From a virus: a DNA stretch of 44,108 nucleotides. Positions 6,328 to 39,530 of this stretch are shown piece after piece. The stretch's first letter is position 1. Each line of letters begins with the position of its first letter. The stretch lies in UHGV virus genome UHGV-0106768; one strand, 5' to 3'. The notes beneath the pieces were generated by a model. The model saw only the letters and a program-made list of their open reading frames with translations. It searched no databases and was not told where the DNA came from. Position numbers and translations under genes: made by a program.

Positions 6328-9213
6328 GTGGTGATTTTATTGAGCAGACGTGTACTTTCTATCGACCTTGAGACCTACAGCGATGTTGACCTTCCGAACT
6401 GCGGTGTGTACCGCTATGTTGAGGGGGATTTTCATATCCTGCTGTTCGCATATGCATTCGATGATGAAGAAACAAAGTGTATCGACATGGCCTGCGGTGA
6501 ACAGCTTCCCGCAGAGGTTGTGGATGCCATACACAATGAAAATATCATCAAATCTGCGTGGAATGCGCAGTTTGAGCGCATCTGTCTGTCAAAATATCTC
6601 GGCATCAGGCTTTCTCCGGACTCGTGGCAATGCACGATGGTATGGGCGGCATCGCTGTCCCTGCCGCTGAAGCTGGCAACGGCAGCACAGGCTTTGAAAA
6701 CTGCACAGCAGAAAGACAGTGTCGGTGAACGGCTGATCCGCTACTTTTCGATTCCGTGTAAGCCTACCAAATCTAACGGCGGTCGCACACGCAATCTGCC
6801 GGAACACGCTCCGGAGGACTGGGCGCTGTTCAAAAGCTACTGTATTCAGGATGTGGAAACGGAACGGGATATCCGCCGAAGACTTGAAAAGTTTCCGCTG
6901 ATGCCGCAGGAATGGGATTTTTATCACATGGATCAGCGGATCAATGACCGCGGCATCCTGATCGACAGAGAGCTTGTGCAGCAGGCAATTATCTGTAATA
7001 TGGCAATGTCTGAGGAGATGACCAAACGCGCCTATGCACTGACGGGACTTGAAAATCCCAATTCTGTATCTCAGCTGAAGTCATGGCTGGAAGATCGCGG
7101 CATCGAGGTGGATTCCCTCGGCAAAAAGAATGTCGCTTCTCTGATCACAGACCTTGACAAGCACAGTGCGGACGGTGAAGCTCTGGATATGATGAAGCTG
7201 CGGTTGCAGATGGCAAAGTCCTCTGTGAAAAAGTATCAGGCGGCAGAGAGATACATCTGTCAGGACGGCAGGGCGCACGGACTGTTTCAGTTTTCCGGAG
7301 CTCAGCGAACACAGCGCTGGTGTCTTACCGGCGATCATGAAATACTGACAGATAAAGGCTGGCTCAGGCTTGATAATTGGCAGGGCGGTAAGATTGCTTG
7401 TTGGAATCCTAATCAGGAAATGGTCTCGTTCCAGAAAGCGAACGTATTGTGCTTTGAATATGACGGTCCTATCTACCGCTATGAGGACAAACGGATCGAT
7501 CAGATCAGCACGCCGGATCACAAAATGCGTGTAAAGAAACGGTATAACGGCGAGTGGACGGATGACACTGTTGGCAATATGGAAAAGTATCGTCCTTCTA
7601 TTCCGTTTACCGGACGCAGACAAACGATGCCCGGCTTGGAGCACGCAGAACTGAGGGTACTGGTGATGACGCAGGCTGACGGCAGCTATAAAGAAGATGG
7701 AATGCTCTGCTTCCATTTCAAGAAGAAAAGGAAAATAGAACGGTGCAAACATCTGCTCAGACAGGCGGGCATTTATTTCACAGTGAATGAATGCAGGACA
7801 GATGGAACAACGCAGATCAAGATTCCTTCCCGTGAGCAGCCGATGTATCTAAGAATGTTTCATAACAAGACATTTGGAATGTGGCTTCTCGATGAAAGCC
7901 CGGATGTTTTCTTTGATGAGCTTCGGTATTGGGACGGATCGCAAAGCGCCAAAAACAGTATCCAATATACCACAACGAACAAAGTGAATGCCGATATTGT
8001 TCAGGCTTTTGCTCATACAAGTGGTCGCTGTGCAAAAATGAAACCGGTCATCCGGGATAAAGAACACCCGAATTGGAGCGATGCATACTATCTCGATATA
8101 TGGCTCACTCCGAAAAACTGTCATGAAATCAGAGTGAAGCCGACTATCTCGCAATTCAGCGGCAAAATATACTGTGCTGAAACCCCAACCGGATACTTCC
8201 TTGTAAGACGTAATGGTAAAGTGTGGGTAACAGGAAACAGCGGGCGCGGCATTCAATTACAGAACCTGCCGCAGAACCACATCTCTACCCTCGATGAAGC
8301 AAGAGAACTTGTCAAAATGGGCTGCTTTGACATGATCGAAGCACTGTACGGCAATACGCCGGATATCCTGTCACAGCTTATCCGCACGATGCTCATTCCG
8401 AAGGACGGCTGTGAATTTATCGTGGCAGACTTCTCCGCCATTGAAGCGAGAGTACTTGCGTGGCTTGCCGGAGAACAGTGGCGGCTCGATGCCTTCAAGC
8501 GTGGCGAGGATATTTACTGTGCATCCGCATCGCAAATGTTCGGTGTTCCGGTCGTGAAGCACGGCATCAACGGTGAACTGCGGCAGAAAGGCAAGGTCGC
8601 AGAATTGGCCTGCGGTTACGGCGGCGGTGCCGGTGCGCTGATCTCAATGGGCGCACTGGATATGGGACTGAAAGAGGACGAACTTCCCGACATCATTTCA
8701 AGCTGGCGCGACGCAAACCCGGAGATCGTGAAATTCTGGTATGCTGTGGAAAAAGCCGCGATTGAAACAGTCAAGGATCACAATGACAGATCGGTCGGCC
8801 GGATCGGATTTCAGTTTTCAGCAAATACACTGTGGATCGTTCTTCCGTCCGGACGCAGGCTTGCCTACATCAAACCGAGATTACAGCCGAACCGCTTCGG
8901 GCGTATGGCACTGACATTTGAGGGGCTTGGTGCAAACAACAAGTGGGTGCGCGGCGAAACCTATTCCGGCAAGCTGACAGAGAACATCACACAGGCAACT
9001 GCCCGTGATCTCCTTGCAGAAGCAATGCGCCGTATAGAACTTGCAGGGCTTGGAATCGTCGGGCATGTGCATGATGAGGTCATTCTCGAAGTGCCGAAAG
9101 GACAATACACGGTCGATGATGTATGCAGCATCATGAATCAGAATCCGAAATGGGCGGAGGACTTACCGTTGTCAAGTGCAGGATATACGGGTGCATGGTA
9201 CTACAAAGATTAA
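6328..9213 (+). CDS. Family A DNA polymerase with 3'-5' exonuclease domain, interrupted by an intein
   Basis: Exo I SIDLETYSD, RT(Q)RW...SGRGIQLQNLPQ, motif A IVADFSAIEARVLAWL, motif C HVHDEV. The true start may be TTG 6340. Confidence 0.9.
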   Translation: MVILLSRRVLSIDLETYSDVDLPNCGVYRYVEGDFHILLFAYAFDDEETKCIDMACGEQLPAEVVDAIHNENIIKSAWNAQFERICLSKYLGIRLSPDSWQCTMVWAASLSLPLKLATAAQALKTAQQKDSVGERLIRYFSIPCKPTKSNGGRTRNLPEHAPEDWALFKSYCIQDVETERDIRRRLEKFPLMPQEWDFYHMDQRINDRGILIDRELVQQAIICNMAMSEEMTKRAYALTGLENPNSVSQLKSWLEDRGIEVDSLGKKNVASLITDLDKHSADGEALDMMKLRLQMAKSSVKKYQAAERYICQDGRAHGLFQFSGAQRTQRWCLTGDHEILTDKGWLRLDNWQGGKIACWNPNQEMVSFQKANVLCFEYDGPIYRYEDKRIDQISTPDHKMRVKKRYNGEWTDDTVGNMEKYRPSIPFTGRRQTMPGLEHAELRVLVMTQADGSYKEDGMLCFHFKKKRKIERCKHLLRQAGIYFTVNECRTDGTTQIKIPSREQPMYLRMFHNKTFGMWLLDESPDVFFDELRYWDGSQSAKNSIQYTTTNKVNADIVQAFAHTSGRCAKMKPVIRDKEHPNWSDAYYLDIWLTPKNCHEIRVKPTISQFSGKIYCAETPTGYFLVRRNGKVWVTGNSGRGIQLQNLPQNHISTLDEARELVKMGCFDMIEALYGNTPDILSQLIRTMLIPKDGCEFIVADFSAIEARVLAWLAGEQWRLDAFKRGEDIYCASASQMFGVPVVKHGINGELRQKGKVAELACGYGGGAGALISMGALDMGLKEDELPDIISSWRDANPEIVKFWYAVEKAAIETVKDHNDRSVGRIGFQFSANTLWIVLPSGRRLAYIKPRLQPNRFGRMALTFEGLGANNKWVRGETYSGKLTENITQATARDLLAEAMRRIELAGLGIVGHVHDEVILEVPKGQYTVDDVCSIMNQNPKWAEDLPLSSAGYTGAWYYKD
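7321..8238 (+). mobile_element. Class-1-type intein with LAGLIDADG homing-endonuclease domain inside the DNA polymerase
   Basis: Starts CLTGDHEILT and ends VWVTGN followed by Ser. Block B is TPDH. LAGLIDADG-like motifs LRVLVMTQADGS and FFDELRYWDGS. Removing it restores GAQRTQRW-SGRGIQLQNLP. Confidence 0.85.
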
Positions 9214-15938: not shown

Positions 15939-16114
15939 ATAAATAAAAACAATAGAAAAGATAAGAAGAATAGAGGATTTTCACTGATTTGAACCATTAC
16001 CCATTTTGCACTGTTTTGAACCTTGCCCGATGCTGTCACTGACAAAGAGTGTGTAAGCGACAAAGCGTGGCAAGGTCAAAATCCAACGATCAATCATGCA
16101 GGAGGAACAAGAAT

Positions 16115-17209
16115 ATGAGAATCATCACTTCAGAACAGGTATCCGCAGGACACCCCGACAAGATCTGTGACCAGATCGCAGATGCTATCGTGACCGACTG
16201 CCTGCAGCATGACCACAACAGCCGTGTCGCCATCGAGTGCCTTTTCAAGAACCGCTTCCTTGTGATCGCCGGTGAACTGACCAGCACCCATGAGCCCGAC
16301 TACAAGGCACTGGTGCAGAGCGTGTTTGACCGCATCAACAACGGCGGAGCAGAGAGTACCGATGCAGGTTTTGATTACAAGCTGGATTTCACAGCCGATG
16401 ATCTGGACATTGCGATTCTGGTCGATCACCAGAGTAGCGACATTGCCCTCGGTGTGAATACCGGCGGTGCAGGAGATCAGGGTATGATGTACGGCTATGC
16501 GACCAACGAAACGCCGGAGATGCTCCCGATCCCCTTCGTGCTGGCTACCAGATTTCTGGAACTGCTGAAAGCCTACCCCTGCCGTATGCTGAAAGCCGAC
16601 GCAAAGGCACAGGTCAGCTATGACTATGACAGCGGTCGCATTACCACCTTCCTCTGCTCGGTGCAGCATACACACGATGTGGATGTTGAGGACTTCAAGC
16701 CCATCATCGAAAAGCTGATGGTGAGAACGGCAACCGAATACGGGCTGAATACAGACTTTGCAAAGCTCGTCAACCCGACCGGCAGATTTGTCATAGGCAG
16801 TTCCTTTGCGGACTGCGGCGTTACCGGACGCAAGCTCGCCTGCGATACCTATGGCGGTATCGGGCATATCGGCGGCGGTGCAATGTCCGGCAAAGATCCG
16901 TCTAAGGTTGACCGCAGCGGCGCATATGCAGCAAGAAAAATCGCAAGGGATATCGTCAGTGCCGGATATGCGGATATGGCAGAGGTGCAGATCGCATATG
17001 CCATCGGCGTGGCAGAACCCGTATCCGTGTATGTGGAAACCTTCGGCACGGAGCATCAGGATACGGAGTTCATCAGCCAGTATGTCCGTGAGAACTACGA
17101 CCTGACACCGAGAGGTATCATTGAAGGACTGCATTTGCTGGATGTGGACTACAACGCTGTTTCCGCATACGGACACTTCGGAAAACAGAACCTTCCGTGG
17201 GAACTATAA
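16115..17209 (+). CDS. metK: S-adenosylmethionine synthetase
   Basis: GGAGGA RBS. SAGHPDKICDQIADAI, GAGDQGMMYGYA and GGGAMSGKDPSKVDRSGAY motifs. Confidence 0.9.
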   Translation: MRIITSEQVSAGHPDKICDQIADAIVTDCLQHDHNSRVAIECLFKNRFLVIAGELTSTHEPDYKALVQSVFDRINNGGAESTDAGFDYKLDFTADDLDIAILVDHQSSDIALGVNTGGAGDQGMMYGYATNETPEMLPIPFVLATRFLELLKAYPCRMLKADAKAQVSYDYDSGRITTFLCSVQHTHDVDVEDFKPIIEKLMVRTATEYGLNTDFAKLVNPTGRFVIGSSFADCGVTGRKLACDTYGGIGHIGGGAMSGKDPSKVDRSGAYAARKIARDIVSAGYADMAEVQIAYAIGVAEPVSVYVETFGTEHQDTEFISQYVRENYDLTPRGIIEGLHLLDVDYNAVSAYGHFGKQNLPWEL

Positions 17210-18915: not shown

Positions 18916-19397
18916 CGCTGACTGAGAACTTCATTCAGAATGCCATCCATCTCGATGCGGGTGCGGAGGTCATGTACGGCAGCGATCAGATGTACGACAC
19001 CTACCCTTGCCGTTTTCCGGCTGTGGAGTTTCAACTTATGGCAACGGATGCTCTTGTTGAGGTTGCAGACCGCATCCGCATGGAGAAGGGCTACCTTCCG
19101 ATGCATCCGAGAGACGGCAAGACAGACGATGTGGACTGCGATGGTTTCTATGATTTTTATGTCGGGATTTCAAAGCTCCCCGGCGACCATCAGCAGTGCC
19201 AGCTTGACAGCAGCATCAGCTTTATGGTTGTCAATTCGGATTCGGATGACAACGAGGATATGTACAATATCGACTTGACAGAAGCAGAACGGGAATATGT
19301 GTATGAGATACTGAACCGACAGTGCCGGAGGTATCACGGCAAGGACTGCGCCGAACTTCTGGCAGAGTCTGAAAAGGAGCTGATGGATACAGCATGA
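18912..19397 (+). CDS. Hypothetical protein
   Basis: ATGA-type overlaps with both neighbours. 161-aa ORF. Confidence 0.55.
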   Translation: MTLTENFIQNAIHLDAGAEVMYGSDQMYDTYPCRFPAVEFQLMATDALVEVADRIRMEKGYLPMHPRDGKTDDVDCDGFYDFYVGISKLPGDHQQCQLDSSISFMVVNSDSDDNEDMYNIDLTEAEREYVYEILNRQCRRYHGKDCAELLAESEKELMDTA

Positions 19398-21541
19398 GAA
19401 TTATCAAGCGAAACGGCGCAGAGGTGCCGTATGACTGTGAAAAGATCAGAGCCGCAATTACTGCGGCAAACGATGAGATGGATTCCGGCGACAGGATCAC
19501 AGATACAGTAATCGGCTTTATTGCTGGTAATGTAGAAAAGCGATGTGAGGCACTTGCAAGGCCTGTCCATGTCGAAGAAGTCCAGGACATGGTTCTTGAT
19601 GAACTGGACAGGGCCGAAGCGTACAAACTTGCACGGCACTACAGCGAGTACCGCCTGCGTCATGAACAGCAGCGCCGGATGAACACAACGGACGGCAAGA
19701 TTCTCAGTCTCCTTGAGAGGAACAACGAGGAGGCAAAACAGGAGAACGCCAACAAGAACCCGATCATCAACAGCACGCTCCGTGACTATATGGCGGGGGA
19801 GGTCAGCCGAGACATCTGCCGCCGATTCCTGTTTCCCGAAGATGTAATCGCTGCCCACGATGACGGCATCATTCATGTACACGATCTGGACTACATCGCA
19901 GAGCCGATGCATAACTGCTGTCTGGTGAATCTGGAGGATATGCTTCAGAACGGCACAGTGGTATCCGGTACTATAATTGAGAAGCCGCACAGCTTTTCGA
20001 CTGCCTGCAATATCGCAACGCAGATCATTGCACAGGTCGCCTCGAATCAGTACGGTGGACAGACCGTCAGCCTTGCACATCTTGCACCTTTCGTGGATGT
20101 GAGCAGAAAAAAGATCCGCACCGAGGTGTTCGAGGATGTGAACTGCGACTGCGGTGCAAAGCTGTCTGAAAAAGAACTGGACTACATCGTAGAAAAGCGT
20201 GTGCGACGGGAGGTCAAGCGTGGCGTGCAGACGATACAGTATCAGATCAACACGCTGCTCACTACCAACGGACAGACGCCGTTCGTCACAGTGTTTATGT
20301 ATCTTGATGAAGTGCCGGAGGGACAGACCCGTGATGACCTTGCGCTCATCATCGAGGAAACACTGCTTCAGCGTATCGAGGGTGTGAAAAACGAAAAGGG
20401 CATCTGGATCACACCGGCATTTCCGAAGCTGATCTATGTTCTTGATGAGGATAACATTCAGCCCGGTTCCAAGTATTACTATCTCACCGAGCTTGCCGCC
20501 AAGTGTACTGCAAAGCGCATGGTTCCCGACTATATTTCCGCAAAGGTGATGAAACGTCTGAAGGGTGATGTGTATGCCTGCATGGGCTGCCGATCTTTCC
20601 TGACACCTTCGGATGACCACAAATACTACGGGCGATTCAATCAGGGAGTCATCACGATCAACCTTGTGGATGTTGCGTGTAGCGCAGGCGGAGACGAAGA
20701 TAAATGCTGGCAGCTTCTTGATGAACGCTGCGAACTGTGCCGCAAAGCGCTTGTGTGTCGGCATGACCGCCTGAAAGGGACACCGTCCGATGTTGCACCA
20801 ATCCTCTGGCAGTATGGCGCACTTGCGAGACTGAAGAACGGCGAGGTCATTGACGATCTGCTGTATAACAACTACAGCACGATCTCGCTCGGCTATGCCG
20901 GCATCGCGGAAATGACCTATCACATGACAGGCCGTTCGCATACAGAGCCAGAAGGAAAAGCGTTTGCACTGAAGGTCATGCGATTCCTGAACGATAAGTG
21001 CAGCAAATGGAGAGCTGAAAGCAATATCTCGTTCTCGCTGTACGGCACGCCGATGGAGAGCGTCACCTACAAATTTGCACAATGTTTGCAGCGCAGACAC
21101 GGCATCATTCCTCATGTGACCGACAAGAGCTATATCACCAACAGCTATCATGTCCATGTGACTGAGCCGATCGATGCCTTCAGCAAGCTAATTTTTGAGG
21201 CAGAGTTTCAGGAGCTTTCTCCGGGCGGTGCGATCAGTTATGTGGAAGTACCGAATCTGCAAAACAATATCCCTGCAGTGCTGGTGCTCATGAGACACAT
21301 CTACGAAACGATTCTGTACGCCGAACTGAATACCAAGTCCGATTACTGTCAGGCTTGCGGCTATGACGGCGAGATCGGGATCGTGGAAGAAGACGGCAAG
21401 CTGATCTGGGAATGTCCGAACTGCGGCAACCGCGATCAGCGAACACTGAATGTCTGCCGCCGCACCTGCGGTTACCTCGGAACGCAGTTCTGGAATCAGG
21501 GACGCACTGCTGAGATCAAGGATCGGGTGATGCACCTGTGA
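19394..21541 (+). CDS. nrdD: Anaerobic ribonucleoside-triphosphate reductase
   Basis: N-terminal ATP-cone (MRIIKRNGAEVPYDCEKI), C-terminal CxxC...CPNCG zinc site, and glycyl-radical motif RRTCGYLG. Confidence 0.92.
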   Translation: MRIIKRNGAEVPYDCEKIRAAITAANDEMDSGDRITDTVIGFIAGNVEKRCEALARPVHVEEVQDMVLDELDRAEAYKLARHYSEYRLRHEQQRRMNTTDGKILSLLERNNEEAKQENANKNPIINSTLRDYMAGEVSRDICRRFLFPEDVIAAHDDGIIHVHDLDYIAEPMHNCCLVNLEDMLQNGTVVSGTIIEKPHSFSTACNIATQIIAQVASNQYGGQTVSLAHLAPFVDVSRKKIRTEVFEDVNCDCGAKLSEKELDYIVEKRVRREVKRGVQTIQYQINTLLTTNGQTPFVTVFMYLDEVPEGQTRDDLALIIEETLLQRIEGVKNEKGIWITPAFPKLIYVLDEDNIQPGSKYYYLTELAAKCTAKRMVPDYISAKVMKRLKGDVYACMGCRSFLTPSDDHKYYGRFNQGVITINLVDVACSAGGDEDKCWQLLDERCELCRKALVCRHDRLKGTPSDVAPILWQYGALARLKNGEVIDDLLYNNYSTISLGYAGIAEMTYHMTGRSHTEPEGKAFALKVMRFLNDKCSKWRAESNISFSLYGTPMESVTYKFAQCLQRRHGIIPHVTDKSYITNSYHVHVTEPIDAFSKLIFEAEFQELSPGGAISYVEVPNLQNNIPAVLVLMRHIYETILYAELNTKSDYCQACGYDGEIGIVEEDGKLIWECPNCGNRDQRTLNVCRRTCGYLGTQFWNQGRTAEIKDRVMHL

Positions 21542-24352: not shown

Positions 24353-24594
24353 CGAAACAGGAATGTGCCATCGTGACAGCGTACACAGGGTTCGCTATGC
24401 TGAAGGGCAGCGACCTGAAATATCTGTACAATTATCTCTCCGGTCTCATCGGCAGGCCGGTGTATTCACACGAGATCCCTGCGGTCGCAGAAGCCTGCAA
24501 GGAACAAATACGAGAAGATTTCCTTGCCCTGTGCAGGAACGCAAAGGAGGCGGATGATGGATCATACAACAATGACGCTCGGCAGTCTGTTTGA
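24349..24594 (+). CDS. Hypothetical protein
   Basis: ATGA overlap with the upstream gene. 81-aa ORF. Confidence 0.5.
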   Translation: MTKQECAIVTAYTGFAMLKGSDLKYLYNYLSGLIGRPVYSHEIPAVAEACKEQIREDFLALCRNAKEADDGSYNNDARQSV

Positions 24595-26848
24595 CGGCTC
24601 CGGGGGCTTTCCGCTTGGTGGCATCCTCGCAGGGATCGAGCCAAGGTGGAGCAGCGAAATTGAACCTTTTCCGGTGCTTGTCACGCACAAGCGGCTGCCG
24701 CAGGTGCAGCACTACGGTGATGTATCTACGCTGAACGGCGCAGAGCTTCCGCCGGTGGATATCATCACCTTAGGCAGTCCTTGTCAGGACCTGTCTATTG
24801 CGGGCAAGCGTGCCGGAATCCATGACGGTGATCGGTCGAACCTGTTCTTTCAGGCGATCCGCATCATCAAAGAAATGAGGGATGCAACAAATGGACGATA
24901 TCCGCGATACTGCGTCTGGGAAAATGTCCCCGGCGCTTTCTCATCCAACGGAGGAAACGACTTCAAGGCTGTCCTCGAAGCAGTTATCGGAGTTAAAGAA
25001 AAAGGGATCGAGGTGCCTGCGCCTGAAAATCACAGATGGGCAAAATCAGACGTATATCTGGGAGACGGATGGAGCGTGGCTTACCGAGTTTTCGATGCTC
25101 AATACTGGGGTGTCCCCCAACGCAGAGCAAGAATCTACCTTGTCGCAGATTTTGCTGGCGAAAGTGCCGGAGAAATACTATTTAAGTCCGAAGGCGTGTC
25201 TTGGTATACTCCGCAGGGCTTCCGTGCGTGGCAAGGAGCTGCCGGAGGTGCTGAAGAAGGCACTGGAGAAACAGGCGGGCGGTCTGACGCTGGAGGTGGA
25301 ACCCTCTGCCTGAATACACAGGGCAACAGCGGCGTCGGCATCACCGAGGACAAGGCTCTCGCACTGGTCGCACAGGATCACGGGAATCATCCTGCCGTTC
25401 TTGCCGCAGGTTTTTCCACAGAGCATAGTGCAAAAGCACGCAGCATCGGATACGAGGAGGAAGTCTCCCCGACACTGAGAGCAGGTGTTGTTCCTGCGGC
25501 ACTCTCGGTCGAAAACCATCCGACAGACGGTCGTGTGAAGATCCGTGAGGACGACACCTGCCAGACACTTTGCAGCAGAGCCGGGACGGGCGGCAACAAT
25601 GTACCGCTTGTCGCTGAACCGATCACGCTGAAAATCAGGTCAGGCTGCGAAGGCGGCGGCAAGGGCGCTCTCTGGCAAACTGATAAATCTGCTACGCTTG
25701 CTACCAACAACAACCAGACACTCTTTCAGCCAGAGATCAAAGCCTTCGGTGTATGTAGCAAGCATTCCAATGCGATGATGTCAGACAATCCGCACAGTGG
25801 CTTTTACGAAGCGACCACGAGCAGAACGCTTGACCAGAGCGGTGGAAACTCCGTAACATCGAATCAGGGCGGCATCTGCGTGGTAGCACCTGCGCCGGAG
25901 ACATTCGATGTGCGTTTCACATCGGACGGCACGAAAAATGCTCGTGGGCATTGTTACCCGACAGACATTTCCCGATGCCTTGATACGAGCGAGGGATCGC
26001 CAGACTCGAATCACGGCGGTGTCGCTGTGGTGGCTCTTGAACCGGGGGCTGCATCACGTGTCGGCGGTCATGTGTACAGTGACGGCAAAAGCGGTACGCT
26101 TCGAGCCAATGCCGGCGATAATCAGCAGGCTGTTGTGGTCGCCGAGCCGGAGACCTATGCTCTGCAAGGCTCGATGATCGGTCGTGCCGACAAGAACGGT
26201 CCGCAGGGTGACGGCATCAATGAGGATGTGTGCTTTACGCTCAATACTTCAGACAGGCACGCTATTGCCGCACCCGATCCGTCTTTCACGATTTCCCGTG
26301 ACAATCACTTCGCCGTTTCGGAAGATATATCTGTTACGGCAGTTGCGAGAGGTCCTGCAACGGTCGCAGCCCCGGCAGATCACTACTGCACAAGCAAGAA
26401 TTCACACCACACGGTCGCTGTGCATGAGCAGGCAAACACGCTGGTCGCATCCGACTGGAAGGATCCGCCGCTTGTGAACGACCTTCCGAATGACGAGCCG
26501 GTATATATCGTAAGAAGGCTGACTCCGGTGGAGTGCGCCAGATTGCAGGGATTCCCGGACTGGTGGTGTGCCGACCTTGCGATTCCTGATCCTTCTGACG
26601 AGGAGATCGCCTTCTGGATGGAAGTATGGGAAACTTGGAGACAGATCACAAATCCCAAGGGCAAACCGAAAACGGAAAAGCAGATCCGCAAATGGCTGGC
26701 TAATCCGTACACGGACAGTGCCGAGTACAAGTTATGGGGCAACGGTGTCTCAGAGCCCGTTGTGTTCTTCGTGCTATCCGGCATTGCCTGGGCGGCACAG
26801 AATTCTGAAACTAATGCAGCAAATTGTGAACATTCTGATACTATGTAA
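24554..26848 (+). CDS. dcm: DNA (cytosine-5) methyltransferase with a variable region of about 450 aa made of tandem TRD-like repeats (probably multispecific)
   Basis: Motif I LFDGSGG, IV GSPCQDLS, VI WENVPG, VIII QRRARIYLVADF, IX RRLTPVECARLQGFP, X GNGVSEPV. AAGGAGG RBS before ATG 24554. Confidence 0.9.
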   Translation: MMDHTTMTLGSLFDGSGGFPLGGILAGIEPRWSSEIEPFPVLVTHKRLPQVQHYGDVSTLNGAELPPVDIITLGSPCQDLSIAGKRAGIHDGDRSNLFFQAIRIIKEMRDATNGRYPRYCVWENVPGAFSSNGGNDFKAVLEAVIGVKEKGIEVPAPENHRWAKSDVYLGDGWSVAYRVFDAQYWGVPQRRARIYLVADFAGESAGEILFKSEGVSWYTPQGFRAWQGAAGGAEEGTGETGGRSDAGGGTLCLNTQGNSGVGITEDKALALVAQDHGNHPAVLAAGFSTEHSAKARSIGYEEEVSPTLRAGVVPAALSVENHPTDGRVKIREDDTCQTLCSRAGTGGNNVPLVAEPITLKIRSGCEGGGKGALWQTDKSATLATNNNQTLFQPEIKAFGVCSKHSNAMMSDNPHSGFYEATTSRTLDQSGGNSVTSNQGGICVVAPAPETFDVRFTSDGTKNARGHCYPTDISRCLDTSEGSPDSNHGGVAVVALEPGAASRVGGHVYSDGKSGTLRANAGDNQQAVVVAEPETYALQGSMIGRADKNGPQGDGINEDVCFTLNTSDRHAIAAPDPSFTISRDNHFAVSEDISVTAVARGPATVAAPADHYCTSKNSHHTVAVHEQANTLVASDWKDPPLVNDLPNDEPVYIVRRLTPVECARLQGFPDWWCADLAIPDPSDEEIAFWMEVWETWRQITNPKGKPKTEKQIRKWLANPYTDSAEYKLWGNGVSEPVVFFVLSGIAWAAQNSETNAANCEHSDTM

Positions 26849-28561: not shown

Positions 28562-29506
28562 ATGACTGAGAAAACCGCACAGCAGATCAACAGAATGAAG
28601 GAGCAGACCATCGGGGTTGAGATCGAGATGAACAACATCACCCGCAAGGCTGCCGCAAAGCTCGCCGCCAACTTCTTCGGCACCAGCCGCACCGAGTACA
28701 CCGCACACCGCAACGGCTACGAAACCTACAGCGCATGGGATGCACAGGGCAGAGAGTGGAAATTCCAGAAGGACGTCAGCATCGCAGGCCCCGACAGCGA
28801 AAAGTGCGAACTGGTCACACCGATCCTGCACTACGCAGACATCGAAACCCTGCAGGAGCTTGTGAGAAGGCTCAGAAAGGCAGGAGCGCGCAGTGATTAC
28901 ACGCGGGGATGTGGAGTCCACTGCCACATTGGAGCCCAGGGACACACACCGCAGACCTTGAGAAACCTCGCAAACCTGATGGCAAGCCACGAAACCCTGA
29001 TCGCCGAGGCAATCAGAGTAGACCAGAGCAGAATGCGCCGCTACTGCAGAACAGTTGACCCGAGATTCCTTGAACAGCTCAACCGCAAAAAGCCCACCAC
29101 GATGGCACAGCTTGCGGACATCTGGTACGGCGCACAGGGCTGCGAATACGGCAGAACCCACCACTACAACGACAGCCGCTATCACATGCTCAACCTCCAC
29201 GCTACCTTCACCAAAGGCACGGTCGAGTTCAGACTTTTCCAGTTCGCACCGCCTTCCAACGGCAAGCAGAACGGGCTCCACGCAGGCAAGCTCAAGAGCT
29301 ACATTCAGCTCTGCCTCGCAATGAGCCAGATGGCAAAGGACCTGCGGAGCGCCAGCCCCAAGGAACAGCAGAAGGAAAACAAAAAGTTCGCCATGCGGAC
29401 TTGGCTGATGAGAATGGGATTCATCGGGGACGAATTCGCAACCGCAAGGGAAACCCTCACCGAGAACCTTACAGGCGACAACAGCTTCCGCTTCGGCAGA
29501 CCTTAA
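28562..29506 (+). CDS. Amidoligase (glutamine-synthetase-like COOH-NH2 ligase family of phages and ICEs)
   Basis: N-terminus TIGVEIEMNNITRKAAAKLAANFFG and the core CGVHCHIG...GTVEFRLFQ match my recollection of the 'putative amidoligase enzyme' family. Confidence 0.7.
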   Translation: MTEKTAQQINRMKEQTIGVEIEMNNITRKAAAKLAANFFGTSRTEYTAHRNGYETYSAWDAQGREWKFQKDVSIAGPDSEKCELVTPILHYADIETLQELVRRLRKAGARSDYTRGCGVHCHIGAQGHTPQTLRNLANLMASHETLIAEAIRVDQSRMRRYCRTVDPRFLEQLNRKKPTTMAQLADIWYGAQGCEYGRTHHYNDSRYHMLNLHATFTKGTVEFRLFQFAPPSNGKQNGLHAGKLKSYIQLCLAMSQMAKDLRSASPKEQQKENKKFAMRTWLMRMGFIGDEFATARETLTENLTGDNSFRFGRP

Positions 29507-34933: not shown

Positions 34934-34961
34934 GGCTTGCAGTTTTGCAGGCCTTTTCTTT
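34934..34961 (+). terminator. Rho-independent terminator closing the accessory array
   Basis: GGCTTGCA-GTTT-TGCAGGCC (one G-U pair), followed by TTTTCTTT. Confidence 0.6.
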
Positions 34962-34992
34962 ATGCACATTTTTATTGGAAGGAGTGATGCGG

Positions 34993-35466
34993 ATGGCTCA
35001 GAGAGGCAGAAAACCAACGCCTACGGCGATCAAAGAGCTGGAAGGCAATCCGGGCAAGCGTCCGCTGAATGATGCAGAGCCGAAGCCGGAACGCAAGGCA
35101 CCGCCCTGTCCGAAGTGGCTGGAGCCCGAAGCAAAAAAGGAATGGCGCAGGCTGTCAAAGCAACTGGAGCAGATTGGTGTGCTGACCGAGGTCGATCAGG
35201 CGGCATTCGCATCCTACTGTCAGGCATACGCACGATGGAAAGAAGCCGAGGAATTCATGACCCAGCACGGCACGATCGTAAAAACAAAATCAGGTTACTG
35301 GCAGCAGGTTCCGCAGGTATCCATTGCGCAAACTTATCTGAAGATCATGAACAAGATCGCAGAGCAGTTTGGCCTGACCCCGGCGGCAAGAAGCCGTATC
35401 ACTGCCGGCGCAGATATGAAAAACGCTGCCGTTGACGATATGGATGAACTTCTCGGAGGTGGCTGA
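34993..35466 (+). CDS. terS: Terminase small subunit, P27 family
   Basis: MAQRGRKPTPTAIKELEGNPGKRPLN N-terminus typical of the P27 family. GGAAGGAG RBS. Confidence 0.85.
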   Translation: MAQRGRKPTPTAIKELEGNPGKRPLNDAEPKPERKAPPCPKWLEPEAKKEWRRLSKQLEQIGVLTEVDQAAFASYCQAYARWKEAEEFMTQHGTIVKTKSGYWQQVPQVSIAQTYLKIMNKIAEQFGLTPAARSRITAGADMKNAAVDDMDELLGGG

Positions 35467-38132
35467 TGGCGAGAACGGCAAAGGCAAGAGAAAGACCTGC
35501 CAACTATCCGAAACTGAAGGATTATAAACCGACACGCTTTATGCTGCCGGAATCGCACTACGATGCGGCAAAGGCTGACCGAGCTGTGCGGTTCATCGAG
35601 AATCTCTGCCATACCAAAGGACGCTGGGCAGGCAAACCGTTCTGGCTGCTTCCGTGGCAGGAACAGATCATCCGGGATATTTTCGGCATCGTCAAAGAGG
35701 ACGATATGCGGCAATTTCGTACCGCCTATGTCGAAATTCCAAAGAAAAATGGGAAGCAGCTTGCACTGGATACACCGATCCCGACTCCGCAGGGATTCAC
35801 CAATATGGGAGATCTGAAGGTCGGAGATACAGTATTCGATGAAAACGGCATTCCGTGCCATGTGGTTGCGAAAAGTCCTGTGGATGATACAGAGCAAGCC
35901 TACAAGCTGACCTTCAAGGACGGCACCTCGATCATTGCCGGGGAAAGGCATCTGTGGAACTGTCAGTATATTTACGGCAAACGCAAGGATGTTCTCTGGA
36001 CGACCGGCGAGATCTATCGCAGGACAACGGAATACAGACAGCGTTTTTCCGACAGACCACAGACAAAGCGGGATTCCCTTATCCGAATTCCGGTGTGCGG
36101 TGTCCTTCAGACAGAAGCGGCAGTTTTACCGATTGATCCGTATCTGTACGGCTACTGGCTCGGAAACGGTAATGTGACCATGCCGGAGATCACTGTTCGG
36201 ACGGAGGATGTCGAGGATATCATCTCGAATATTCCGTATAAGGTACACAACCGTTATCCGCAGAAATGCGGCGGCAGTGAGATCATAAAGTACAATGAAC
36301 TGAAAGCAGTACTACTTGACAGCTTCCGTGAAAAGAAGATCCGACCAGAATATCTGAGGGCATCCGCAGAGCAGAGATGGGCATTACTGCAAGGGCTTAT
36401 GGATTCGGACGGCTGTATCGGTGAACGCAAAGGGCAAAGTGTGTATGTCACAACGCTGCGAGAGCTGGCGCTTTCCGTCAGAGAACTGCTGTGGTCACTC
36501 GGCATCAAAAATGCAGTGAAATGTGAGCCTTCTACACGGCATGGGTGGCCGACCGGCGAGATTTTGTATATCGTCCGTTTTACAACCTTTGATGACCAAC
36601 CGACATCAAGGCTTAAACGCAAAAATACACGCACACAGGCGCGGTTAAAGGAAACTCGCTCCTGTTTTCATTATCTGCTGGATATTCAACCTGTAAATCA
36701 TCCTGTAAAAATGCAGTGCATTCAGGTGGACAGTCCGAGTCACCAATATCTCGCAGGACCGTCATTTGTGCCTACGCACAACAGTGAGCTTGCAGCGGCA
36801 ATTGCACTGTATCTGCTCTACGCCGACAACGAGCCGTCTGCTGAGGTCTACGGCGCTGCTGCTGATCGTGGGCAGGCATCCATTGTATTCGATGTCGCCA
36901 AAAGAATGGTTGAGATGACACCGGCACTTCTGAAACGCTCAAAAATCATGGCGGCGACAAAGCGTCTGGTGAATTACAGTAATGTTGGCTTTTATCAGGT
37001 GCTTTCAGCGGAAGTCGGTACAAAGCACGGATTGAATGTATCCGGTCTGGTTTTGGATGAACTTCATGCCCAACCGAACCGCAGCCTTGTGGATGTTCTC
37101 ACAAAGGGTTCCGGTGATGCCCGTACTCAGCCGCTGTACTTCCTGATCACAACCGCCGGAACGGATCGCAACAGCATCTGCTACGAGTATCACACGAAAG
37201 CAAAAGATATTCTGGACGGCAGGCGCATTGATCCGTCCTTCTATCCTGTGATCTACGGCTTGAACGATGATGACGACTGGAACGCAGAGGAGTCATGGTA
37301 TAAGGCAAATCCCTCGCTCGGATACACTATCGCCATCGACCGAGTCCGCGATGCTCACCGGGAAGCCCTTACAAATCCCGCTGAAGAAAATGTATTCCGT
37401 CAGCTGAGGCTTGACCAGTGGGTAGGCAGTGCGGTGGCATGGATTCCGGAGCATATCTACGACAGGGGCAATCTTCCGATCGACCTCGAAAAGCTCCGGG
37501 GACGGGAGTGCTACGCAGGTCTTGACCTATCCAGCACATCGGATATCACGGCATTTGTGCTGGTGTTCCCTCCGCTGCATGACGGCGAGAAATACATCGT
37601 TGTCCCGCACTTCTGGCTGCCGAGAGAAACGCTCGATTTACGAGTACGGCGAGACCATGTTCCCTACGATGTATGGGAGCGCATGGGATTATTTCATATC
37701 ACCGAGGGCAATGTGGTCGATTACAATTTCGTGCGGAAAACGATCAACGAGCTGCACACGATGTACAACATCAAGGAAATTGCTGCCGACCGCTGGAATG
37801 CCACACAGCTTATCACAGACCTTGAGGGAGACGGATTTACCGTTGTTCCGATGGGCATGGGCTTCAAGGATATGTCCCCGCCGATGAAGGAACTGTACAA
37901 GCTCATACTCGAAGGGCAGTTTATCCACGGCGGCAACCCTGTACTCCGCTGGATGGCAGGAAATGTGGTCGCTGAAATTGATGCAGCGGAGAACATCAAA
38001 CCAAGTAAAAAGAAAAGTACAGAAAAGATTGACGGTATCGTGGCATGGATCATGGCACTTGACCGCTGCATCCGCCACGAAATGCAGGGCAGTGTCTATG
38101 ACGAACCCGGCCACGATCTTGTGGTCATCTGA
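35466..38132 (+). CDS. terL: Terminase large subunit interrupted by an intein in the Walker A motif
   Basis: PKKNGK / SELAAAIALYLL flank the insert. Walker B LVLDELH. C-terminal nuclease region. ATGA overlap with terS. Confidence 0.9.
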   Translation: MARTAKARERPANYPKLKDYKPTRFMLPESHYDAAKADRAVRFIENLCHTKGRWAGKPFWLLPWQEQIIRDIFGIVKEDDMRQFRTAYVEIPKKNGKQLALDTPIPTPQGFTNMGDLKVGDTVFDENGIPCHVVAKSPVDDTEQAYKLTFKDGTSIIAGERHLWNCQYIYGKRKDVLWTTGEIYRRTTEYRQRFSDRPQTKRDSLIRIPVCGVLQTEAAVLPIDPYLYGYWLGNGNVTMPEITVRTEDVEDIISNIPYKVHNRYPQKCGGSEIIKYNELKAVLLDSFREKKIRPEYLRASAEQRWALLQGLMDSDGCIGERKGQSVYVTTLRELALSVRELLWSLGIKNAVKCEPSTRHGWPTGEILYIVRFTTFDDQPTSRLKRKNTRTQARLKETRSCFHYLLDIQPVNHPVKMQCIQVDSPSHQYLAGPSFVPTHNSELAAAIALYLLYADNEPSAEVYGAAADRGQASIVFDVAKRMVEMTPALLKRSKIMAATKRLVNYSNVGFYQVLSAEVGTKHGLNVSGLVLDELHAQPNRSLVDVLTKGSGDARTQPLYFLITTAGTDRNSICYEYHTKAKDILDGRRIDPSFYPVIYGLNDDDDWNAEESWYKANPSLGYTIAIDRVRDAHREALTNPAEENVFRQLRLDQWVGSAVAWIPEHIYDRGNLPIDLEKLRGRECYAGLDLSSTSDITAFVLVFPPLHDGEKYIVVPHFWLPRETLDLRVRRDHVPYDVWERMGLFHITEGNVVDYNFVRKTINELHTMYNIKEIAADRWNATQLITDLEGDGFTVVPMGMGFKDMSPPMKELYKLILEGQFIHGGNPVLRWMAGNVVAEIDAAENIKPSKKKSTEKIDGIVAWIMALDRCIRHEMQGSVYDEPGHDLVVI
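35757..36782 (+). mobile_element. Class-3-like intein (Gln1, Trp-Cys-Thr triad) with LAGLIDADG homing endonuclease in terL
   Basis: Starts QLALDTPIPTPQGF and ends FVPTHN followed by Ser. Block B is GERHLW (W codon 35955-57). Block F is MQCIQVD (C codon 36717-19). Block G is PTHN. LAGLIDADG-like YGYWLGNGN and LLQGLMDSDG. Confidence 0.8.
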
Positions 38133-38147
38133 CAGGAGGTAATGTTT

Positions 38148-39530
38148 ATGAGCTTTTTAAGCTGGCTCGGCATCAGCAAGCCGAGAGATGCGCCGATGCT
38201 GCCTGATATTCAGGACAATGTCCGTGATTCTGGAAATCTGTTCGTATTCGGCATGACGCACAGCGGTGAACGTGTCGATGAGCGCACGGCGATGCAGATC
38301 GTGACTGTTTACGCCTGTGTTCGACTGCTCTCCAATACGATTGCTGGACTGCCGCTGCACCTATACAGATACACCGGCAAGGGCGATGATAAGGAATTAG
38401 CCATTGACCATCCGCTGTACAAAATACTCTATCGGCAGCCGAATCCCGAAATGAGTTCATTCTCGTTCTGGGAAGCACTGATGTGCCACCTTTTACTATG
38501 GGGCAACGCCTATGCACAGATTGTCCGGGACGGCAAAAACGGCATCCTCGGTCTCTATCCCCTGCTTCCCGAAAATGTCGAGATCGACCGTGATCCGAAA
38601 TCCGGCGACCTGATCTACACTTACCACGCCTACACCGACGAAAAGCCCGGTGAGCATGACAAGGATATTATCTTCCGCAGGGATGAAATCTTACACATCC
38701 CCGGTCTGGGATTCAATGGACTGGTCGGTTTCTCACCGATAGCGATGATGAAAAATGCACTCGGTGCGGTCATGGCAGTAGAGCGATACGGCAGCGCCTT
38801 CTTCAAAAACGGAGCGCAGCCTGCCGGAGTTCTCGAACATCCGGGCGTGCTGAAGGATCCGCAGAAGATCCGCGACAACTGGACAAAGGCATACGGCGGC
38901 GCACGGAACGCACACCGCATCGCAGTCCTCGAAGAAGGTATGCAGTATAAGCCAATCTCCCTGCCGCCGGAGGATTCGCAGTTTCTGTCCACAAGAGAAT
39001 TCGATGTGGAGGAAATCTGCCGGATGTTTCAGGTTCCGCCGCATCTGGTACAAGACCTCAAACGCAGTACCTTCAATAACATCGAGCATCAGGGTATTGC
39101 ATTTGTGCAGTATTCTCTTATGCCGTGGATCATTCGCATCGAAAAGGGCATCATGAAAGATTTGCTGCTTGAAGAGGAACAGGATGTATATTTTCCGAAG
39201 TTCAATGTGGACGGTCTCATGCGAGGTGATTATCAGAGCCGCATGAACGCCTATGCCATAGGTGTGGGTAACGGCTTTATGTCGCCCAATGATGTGCGCC
39301 GTCTTGAAAATATGGACTTGATCCCTGACGATCAGGGCGGCAACGACTACTACCTGAACGGCTCGTATAACAAGCTGGAGGATGCAGGTGCGGCATATGC
39401 TCTGAATCAGCCGCAGGAACAGCCGGATACCGAGGAACAGGATGAGCCGGACGAGAATCCGGGCGAAGAAACCGATGACAGATTCCTGCGAAAAAAGCGC
39501 AGGAAGAAATACAAGAATGGGGGTATGTAA
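38148..39530 (+). CDS. Portal protein, HK97 family
   Basis: Position after terL. FSFWEALMCHLLLWGNAYAQIVRD and FLSTREFDVEEICRMFQVPPHL patterns. Confidence 0.88.
   Translation: MSFLSWLGISKPRDAPMLPDIQDNVRDSGNLFVFGMTHSGERVDERTAMQIVTVYACVRLLSNTIAGLPLHLYRYTGKGDDKELAIDHPLYKILYRQPNPEMSSFSFWEALMCHLLLWGNAYAQIVRDGKNGILGLYPLLPENVEIDRDPKSGDLIYTYHAYTDEKPGEHDKDIIFRRDEILHIPGLGFNGLVGFSPIAMMKNALGAVMAVERYGSAFFKNGAQPAGVLEHPGVLKDPQKIRDNWTKAYGGARNAHRIAVLEEGMQYKPISLPPEDSQFLSTREFDVEEICRMFQVPPHLVQDLKRSTFNNIEHQGIAFVQYSLMPWIIRIEKGIMKDLLLEEEQDVYFPKFNVDGLMRGDYQSRMNAYAIGVGNGFMSPNDVRRLENMDLIPDDQGGNDYYLNGSYNKLEDAGAAYALNQPQEQPDTEEQDEPDENPGEETDDRFLRKKRRKKYKNGGM

Follow-up and report, generated by a model that had tools for sequence, protein, structure and literature searches.

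How could a phage package its DNA when the ATP-binding loop of its packaging motor is split by more than three hundred residues? The question is raised by the gene for the terminase large subunit (TerL) in the UHGV virus genome UHGV-0106768, of which a stretch of 44,108 nucleotides, here called the window, was analysed. The open reading frame (ORF), identified from the ORF list and by Pfam TerL_ATPase and TerL_nuclease matches, encodes a precursor of 888 residues (35466..38132, + strand), which contains an insert of 342 residues, Gln1 to Asn342 (35757..36782, +), identified by translation, phmmer searches of the PDB, homologues, an AlphaFold model and Foldseek. With a probability of about 0.9, this insert is a bifunctional class 3 intein, consisting of a HINT splicing domain and a nested LAGLIDADG homing endonuclease. 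It is a real and well-preserved example of an arrangement already known in phage terminases, and not a new system. An original prediction, made from the letters of the DNA, had proposed a class 3 intein that splits the P-loop of TerL, such that splicing would restore the motif GKS, and that begins with Gln instead of Cys or Ser; each of these elements is borne out by the comparisons described below.

Translation of nucleotides 35757-36782 yields 342 residues (QLALDT...VPTHN), preceded by ...EIPKKNGK and followed by SELAAAIALYLL. The insert divides the P-loop PKKNGK|S in-frame, with Lys97 on its N-terminal side (Lys-1, codon at 35754-56) and Ser440 on its C-terminal side (Ser+1, codon AGT at 36783-36785). 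The N-extein (residues 1-97, 35466..35756, +) ends in EIPKKNGK, the first part of the Walker A motif or P-loop, and the C-extein (residues 440-888, 36783..38132, +), assigned by Pfam and by alignment with intein-free TerL, starts with Ser+1 and comprises the remaining ATPase domain and the nuclease domain. Because the insert sits between the invariant Lys and Ser of Walker A, its removal by splicing would restore GKS. Pfam matches in the precursor are TerL_ATPase from residue 442 on (with the profile starting at position 37), TerL_nuclease at residues 589-872 and, between the exteins, LAGLIDADG_3. When the insert is removed in silico, the TerL_ATPase match, which covers profile positions 37-177 at 71 bits, becomes contiguous over positions 1-177 of 178 at 90 bits. 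Alignment with the intein-free TerL of the gut phage NatCom_20922 (Ca. Heliusvirales, 74% identity), which reads ...EIPKKNGKSELAAAIALYLL... across the site, leaves a single gap of exactly residues 98-439.

The same boundaries are given by natural alleles. IMG/VR was scanned with the spliced protein, and the best 80 loci were typed by tblastn, using the N-extein, intein and C-extein separately. Empty alleles, in which the Lys codon and the Ser codon adjoin with a gap of 0 nt, account for 59/80 loci, full-intein alleles with an insert of 1026 nt at the same position for 15/80, and mini-intein alleles with an insert of 471 nt (157 residues), again at the same position, for 5/80, while the remaining locus (1/80) ends at the contig end. 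Extein identity to the window TerL reaches 97-98% in the empty, 97-100% in the full and 95-99% in the mini-intein alleles. The boundaries of the intein are thus exact, being fixed by the empty alleles independently of any intein model. Moving the junction by one residue either way fails to regenerate NGKSE, and so there is no alternative start at a Cys or Ser. The P-loop Lys|Thr site of mycobacteriophages is named TerL1-a by Kelley et al. (PMC5050341); the window intein occupies the equivalent position, between the invariant P-loop Lys and a hydroxyl residue.

Assignment to class 3 follows from the residues at the catalytic positions. Class 3 inteins are recognized by a Trp-Cys-Thr (WCT) triplet (Trp at B:12, Cys at F:4, Thr at G:5), a first residue that is not a nucleophile, and a +1 residue that is Ser, Thr or, rarely, Cys, with Ser in most of them (PMC2807308). 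In the window intein, the N-terminal splicing (HINT) half (residues 1-110, 35757..36086, +) contains block A (QLALDT) and block B (GERHLW), with Gln1 encoded by CAG at 35757-35759, His65 (B:10) at 35949-35951 and Trp67 (B:12) at 35955-35957. The C-terminal splicing half (residues 304-342, 36666..36782, +) contains block F (MQCIQVD) and block G (PTHN), with Cys321 (F:4) at 36717-36719, Thr340 (G:5) at 36774-36776, His341 (G:6) at 36777-36779 and Asn342 (G:7) at 36780-36782. All of the sequence-level features by which Tori et al. 2010 define class 3 are present, as are the general hallmarks of an intein: blocks A, B, F and G, a C-terminal Asn after His, Ser at +1, and an in-frame position that is vacant in close homologues.

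The best PDB matches to the insert, found by phmmer, are three class 3 DnaB inteins, 6bs8 (E = 1.3e-21), 6rix and 6riy, and alignment with these solved inteins brings the catalytic residues into register. The first stretch, residues 2-71, matches 6bs8 residues 2-71 without a gap, which puts His65 and Trp67 at the places of the block B His and WCT Trp in class 3 DnaB inteins. Residues 317-342 align to 6bs8 residues 114-139, placing Cys321 on the catalytic Cys118 and T-H-N on T-H-N, and block A aligns residue for residue to Ala1-Leu2-Ala3-Leu4-Asp5-Thr6. An AlphaFold2 model of the intein, built on an alignment of 40 sequences, has a predicted local distance difference test (pLDDT) score of 91.8 and a predicted template modelling (pTM) score of 0.90. 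In a Foldseek search of the PDB, the splicing part of the model matches 6bs8 / 6rix with TM scores of 0.82-0.88 on the target, and the modelled chain adopts a HINT fold.

Conservation across the family follows the same pattern. Database searches returned 289 homologues (best E = 2.6e-215), nearly all of them in fragments of TerL from metagenomes of gut and rumen Bacillota, and the following counts are taken from the best 120 of these 289 relatives. Position 1 is Gln in 71, Glu in 11, Ala in 8, Leu in 2 and Met in 1 of 93 relatives, and never Cys, Ser or Thr. His65 and Trp67 are present in 99/99 relatives each, Cys321 in 64/65, Thr340 and His341 in 60/60 each, and Asn342 in 59/60. The +1 residue is Ser in 53, Thr in 3 and Leu in 3 of 59 relatives; one Leu+1 case is visible at the DNA level in L050 (Selenomonas ruminantium), where TerL is disrupted. 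The same junctions and the same signature recur at 54 loci in GTDB species genomes of named Bacillota, including the cultured isolates Faecalicatena contorta JCM 6483, Acidaminococcus intestini DSM 21505, A. fermentans, Megasphaera elsdenii, Fonticella tunisiensis and Propionispora. Position 34 of the window intein is a Cys (GIPCHVV, 35856-35858) that is at least 90% conserved in its family; this Cys also occurs in the TerL class 3 inteins of RcKickapoo and a Vibrio phage, is missing in the mycobacterial DnaB inteins, and differs in position from Cys48, the redox partner of Msm DnaBi1.

The second part of the insert is the LAGLIDADG homing-endonuclease domain (residues 111-303, 36087..36665, +), which is recognized by Pfam and is missing from the 157-residue mini-inteins. 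The segment matches LAGLIDADG_3 (E = 1.9e-7) and Hom_end (E = 0.003). Its two LAGLIDADG motifs are block C, YGYWLGNGNVT (36147-36179, residues 131-141, with YGYWLGNGN at 131-139), and block E, LLQGLMDSDGCI (36384-36419, residues 210-221, with LLQGLMDSDG at 210-219), and their occurrence in an alpha-beta-beta-alpha-beta-beta-alpha domain pair is seen in Pfam, in the motifs and in Foldseek. With the whole model as query, Foldseek finds PI-SceI (E = 1.6e-17), TliVMA, PhoVMA and PI-PfuI in the PDB, as well as I-DmoI. The nesting of a LAGLIDADG endonuclease within the intein, also part of the original prediction, is hence confirmed by the motifs, by Pfam and by the match of the entire model to PI-SceI.

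By analogy to the Bethlehem DnaB, Msm DnaB-1 and Mle DnaB inteins, for which the pathway has been published (PMC2807308, PMC5222942), the signature and homology point to class 3 chemistry, with a branched thioester at the block F Cys. The TerL precursor, its P-loop split by 342 residues, would presumably be dead as an ATPase, since Walker A is divided by the intein; an inactive precursor has likewise been argued for other P-loop inteins (PMC6195587). Cys321, positioned by His65 and Trp67 of block B, would attack the Lys97-Gln1 bond to form the block F branched thioester, from which the N-extein would move to the Ser+1 hydroxyl, giving the standard block G branched ester. Cyclization of Asn342, aided by His341, would then free the intein, and an O-to-N acyl shift would produce ...NGKSELAA..., with the GKS P-loop restored and the terminase active. 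The endonuclease domain would target intein-free terL alleles across the P-loop codons, thereby driving homing in co-infection or in phage-prophage encounters.

Several observations weigh against this interpretation. The HINT domain of the TerL intein escapes the intein-splicing profiles of Pfam and NCBIfam, and the class assignment therefore rests on PDB homology, the family alignment and the predicted fold. At position 7 of block B the window intein has Gly62, where Msm DnaBi1 has Asp62 and the Bethlehem intein has Ser62, which is dispensable there. On the endonuclease side, block C reads GNG, compared to GDG in PI-SceI-type enzymes; the Asn is found in 83/93 relatives and an Asp in 8. In PI-SceI, the catalytic acidic residues at the motif ends are Asp218 and Asp326. 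Block E of the window intein retains DSDG, so that of the canonical acidic pair just one member is left. With Asn in place of the catalytic Asp of block C, the endonuclease may nick, be weak or be inactive, and with a first motif devoid of an acidic residue, full double-strand cleavage is not assured; the domain may have an asymmetric active site or be a natural nickase. Finally, the window intein has no N-terminal nucleophile, and inteins with the WCT signature could in principle use class 2 or class 3 chemistry until an F:4 mutant is tested (PMC5222942).

The last point leads to the only serious mechanistic rival, in which the insert is a true intein with the same boundaries but of class 2 (KlbA-like), such that Ser+1 attacks the Lys97-Gln1 bond directly and Cys321 plays no more than a structural or activating role. 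Against it, the F:4 Cys was obligatory in every WCT or class 3 intein tested (PMC2807308, PMC5222942), which leaves class 2 chemistry improbable; Cys321 is moreover kept in almost the entire family, and the homology is to class 3 inteins and not to KlbA inteins. Less probable still is a decaying or splicing-dead insert in a defective prophage, in which TerL would be a pseudogene and nothing would depend on splicing. Decay of this kind does occur among relatives: the ORF is split in L041, L050 (the Selenomonas ruminantium locus with Leu at +1) and L053, and single relatives carry Gly at F:4 or Asp at G:7. In the window, however, the ORF of 888 residues is unbroken, all catalytic residues are present, the adjoining terS, portal, protease and capsid genes are intact, intein alleles 94-100% identical to it occur on 15 separate IMG/VR viral contigs, and the intein evolves under constraint (dN/dS, the ratio of nonsynonymous to synonymous substitution rates, of 0.02-0.09) similar to that of the exteins. 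A class 1 intein with mis-assigned boundaries and a true start at a nearby Cys or Ser, for which nothing was found beyond the caveat voiced in the original prediction itself, has a negligible chance of being correct in view of the 59 empty loci that fix the insert at residues 98-439, the failure of one-residue shifts to regenerate NGKSE, and the register of block A with 6bs8 residues 1-6.

The bifunctional class 3 intein is further characterized by its evolution. Using as references L003 and L005, the closest genomic relatives without synonymous saturation, dN/dS is 0.02-0.04 for the N-terminal splicing half, 0.05-0.09 for the endonuclease domain, 0.03-0.04 for the C-terminal splicing half and 0.01-0.03 for the C-extein, indicating that both the splicing and the endonuclease activities are, or recently were, under purifying selection. 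The coexistence of empty, full and endonuclease-less mini alleles at one site in near-identical terL genes is the pattern expected of an ongoing homing cycle. A younger age of the intein relative to its exteins was considered, with a hint in the comparison to L003, where the synonymous divergence (dS) of the intein (0.30-0.68) is lower than that of the C-extein (0.92), but such a mosaic is not claimed, as the region shows an even 88% identity by blastn throughout and the other pairs are synonymously saturated. Base composition gives no clear signal of foreign origin, with a GC fraction of 0.48-0.51 in the intein and about 0.50-0.55 in the flanks.

Mini-inteins of 157 residues lacking the endonuclease occur at the same TerL site in the IMG/VR loci L126-L128, L131 and L137, in the genomic loci L054-L056, and in P0079, P0089, P0099, P0101, P0112 and P0117. 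Residues 1-110 of the intein are retained in mini-intein relatives. In the mini-intein of L126, the first 68 residues equal those of the window intein and are followed by a short unrelated linker in place of residues ~69-300. The codon for Ser+1 is AGT or AGC in 20/20 intein-bearing IMG/VR alleles (15 full, 5 mini), while the Ser codon of the closest empty alleles is mostly TCG or TCT, which is not one synonymous step from AGY; this split could follow lineage, or mark a target site that resists the endonuclease.

Class 3 inteins with this kind of placement are not without precedent. Phage terminase large subunits, and a mostly P-loop insertion, were already named in the paper defining class 3 (PMC2807308), and a 2025 survey counted 287 class 3 inteins in actinophages, almost all of them in TerL and Cas4 (bioRxiv 10.1101/2025.01.02.630785). 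In mycobacteriophages, splicing has been shown for the class 3 inteins in the TerL of Bethlehem (TerL1-c) and Gaia (TerL1-e), and the TerL intein of Bethlehem cleaves intein-less terL (PMC5050341). The nearest solved inteins by sequence (E = 1e-21 to 5e-18) are those in the DnaB P-loop of M. smegmatis (DnaBi1, 6bs8) and M. chimaera (DnaB1, 6rix/6riy), to which that of M. leprae DnaB can be added as a further class 3 intein in the same motif. They share with the window intein block A (xLALDTP), His65, Trp67, the block F Cys, the THN end, insertion after the invariant P-loop Lys, and Ser at +1; the N-extein of Mch DnaB1 ends in SVGK (PMC7664689), and Msm DnaBi1 lies in the P-loop with Ser+1 (PMC6195587). 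They differ in host protein (DnaB, compared to TerL in the window), in position 1 (Ala, compared to Gln) and in B:7 (Asp, compared to Gly); the DnaB inteins are mini-inteins, whereas the window intein retains its LAGLIDADG domain, and the redox-partner Cys48 of Msm DnaBi1 is Ala48 in the window.

The class 3 prototype, the Bethlehem DnaB intein (PMC2807308), is closer in architecture, with 341 residues compared to 342, no N-terminal nucleophile, the same His65 and Trp67, a nested LAGLIDADG domain and a phage host. Its block F Cys is residue 320 (321 in the window) and its Thr-His-Asn is 339-341 (340-342), and it differs in having Pro1, Thr at +1 and a helicase host gene. As the Bethlehem DnaB intein starts with Pro and tolerates substitutions there, Gln1 is one more allowed non-nucleophile and no departure from class 3. 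No precedent for Gln1 in a class 3 intein was found in the searchable literature.

Two groups of phage TerL inteins complete the comparison. Actinophage class 3 inteins are found in the TerL of Bethlehem gp10 (TerL1-c), Gaia gp2 (TerL1-e), LittleE and Omega gp9, and in Cas4/RecB exonucleases. The inteins of LittleE, Omega, Gaia, Zipp and APunk are 33-36% identical to the window intein over the full length, and the actinophage TerL inteins likewise combine HINT and LAGLIDADG domains in a host protein of the TerL_ATPase / Terminase_1 family. By contrast with the window intein, their insertion points, named c, d and e, lie further downstream than the P-loop (that of LittleE follows ...SAHEFK, ~30 residues past the P-loop), and they start with Ala and have GDGD in block C, compared to Gln and GNG. 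The same site (GK|...THN|T) is occupied by class 3 inteins with WCT and LAGLIDADG in the deposited genomes of Rhodobacter phage RcKickapoo, Vibrio phage 489E54-1 and Acidovorax phage ACF1, which are 33-34% identical to the window intein over the full length and have Proteobacteria hosts, Thr at +1, and Arg (RcKickapoo), Ala (489E54-1) or Cys (ACF1) at position 1, indicating that position 1 is simply variable. The GenBank phage collection contains no member with >36% identity to this Bacillota-phage clade.

The particulars of the window intein are accordingly modest: membership in a large Bacillota-phage clade, a position 1 dominated by Gln and Glu, Gly at B:7, the conserved Cys34, and Asn in the first LAGLIDADG motif. 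It is unlikely that these features make the clade a mechanistic sub-variant of class 3 and not a routine member. The marks of such a sub-variant would be Gln/Glu at position 1 (~88%), Gly B:7 together with the conserved Cys34, and an Asn-bearing LAGLIDADG domain under strong purifying selection. Were the proposal true, the nested enzyme would be a strand-specific nickase occurring in nature, with nicks as the drivers of homing; activation of the scissile bond might involve Cys34 or the side chain at position 1, or one of these might redox-gate terminase maturation in anaerobes.

The TerL ORF lies in an ordinary packaging and head module, with an intact terS (Terminase_4 small subunit, 34945-35466) upstream and portal (38142-39530), ClpP-type prohead protease and HK97-type major capsid protein genes, also intact, downstream. 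In a megablast search of GenBank phages, the terL gene has no match, and window positions 1-25000 give only short patches of 72-86% identity, the phage itself being absent from that collection; the IMG/VR contig IMGVR_UViG_3300030438_000122 (L113) encodes a TerL 100% identical to that of the window and probably represents its source or a near-identical relative. Relatives are labelled in public records just as 'terminase, partial' or 'LAGLIDADG family homing endonuclease, partial', and the gene calls of many of them stop at or within the intein. Ca. Heliusvirales was defined in a paper that takes TerL as its marker gene and leaves inteins unmentioned.

A second intein in the window, also part of the original prediction, was found in the family A DNA polymerase ORF (6328-9213, 961 residues), where it spans 306 residues (7321..8238, +) from Cys1 to VTGN|Ser+1, with the junctions ...GAQRTQRW|CLTGDHEILT...KVWVTGN|SGRGIQLQNLP.... 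It stands on the translation and on splicing in silico, after which the Pfam DNA_pol_A match spans the junction unbroken (profile positions 15-264) and scores 91 bits, up from 77. Its Cys1, penultimate Gly and Ser at +1 make it class-1-like, and its block A has a weak PDB match to the Spl DnaX mini-intein (E = 0.0012); Pfam and NCBIfam recognize neither a splicing nor an endonuclease domain in it. If both inteins lie in essential motifs, it is plausible that replication and packaging both depend on splicing. The replication genes of the window include a SNF2 helicase and a D5-type primase-helicase. A C-5 cytosine methyltransferase ORF of 774 residues (24524-26848, +) matches Pfam in two stretches around a long Gly/Ala/Ser-rich middle, and its product is possibly a multispecific phage enzyme whose target-recognition region is expanded. 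Auxiliary metabolic genes encode S-adenosylmethionine synthetase (MetK, 16049-17209, +), the anaerobic ribonucleotide reductase NrdD (19394-21541, +), which carries an ATP-cone, and an Amidoligase_2 protein (28562-29506, +).

The window intein leaves the current understanding of inteins unchanged, and a packaging ATPase and a DNA polymerase that would become active only after splicing are a normal consequence of active-site inteins. Because standard profile libraries miss the splicing domain, such TerL genes are annotated as 'terminase' or 'LAGLIDADG endonuclease, partial', and because TerL is a marker for gut-phage phylogeny (Ca. Heliusvirales), an insert of 342 residues can disturb gene calling and alignments. 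With this finding the class 3 inteins, so far mostly studied in actinobacteria and their phages, gain a well-populated clade associated with Bacillota, whose natural series of empty, full and mini alleles, with exteins up to 95-100% identical to those of the window, is convenient for the study of the homing cycle.

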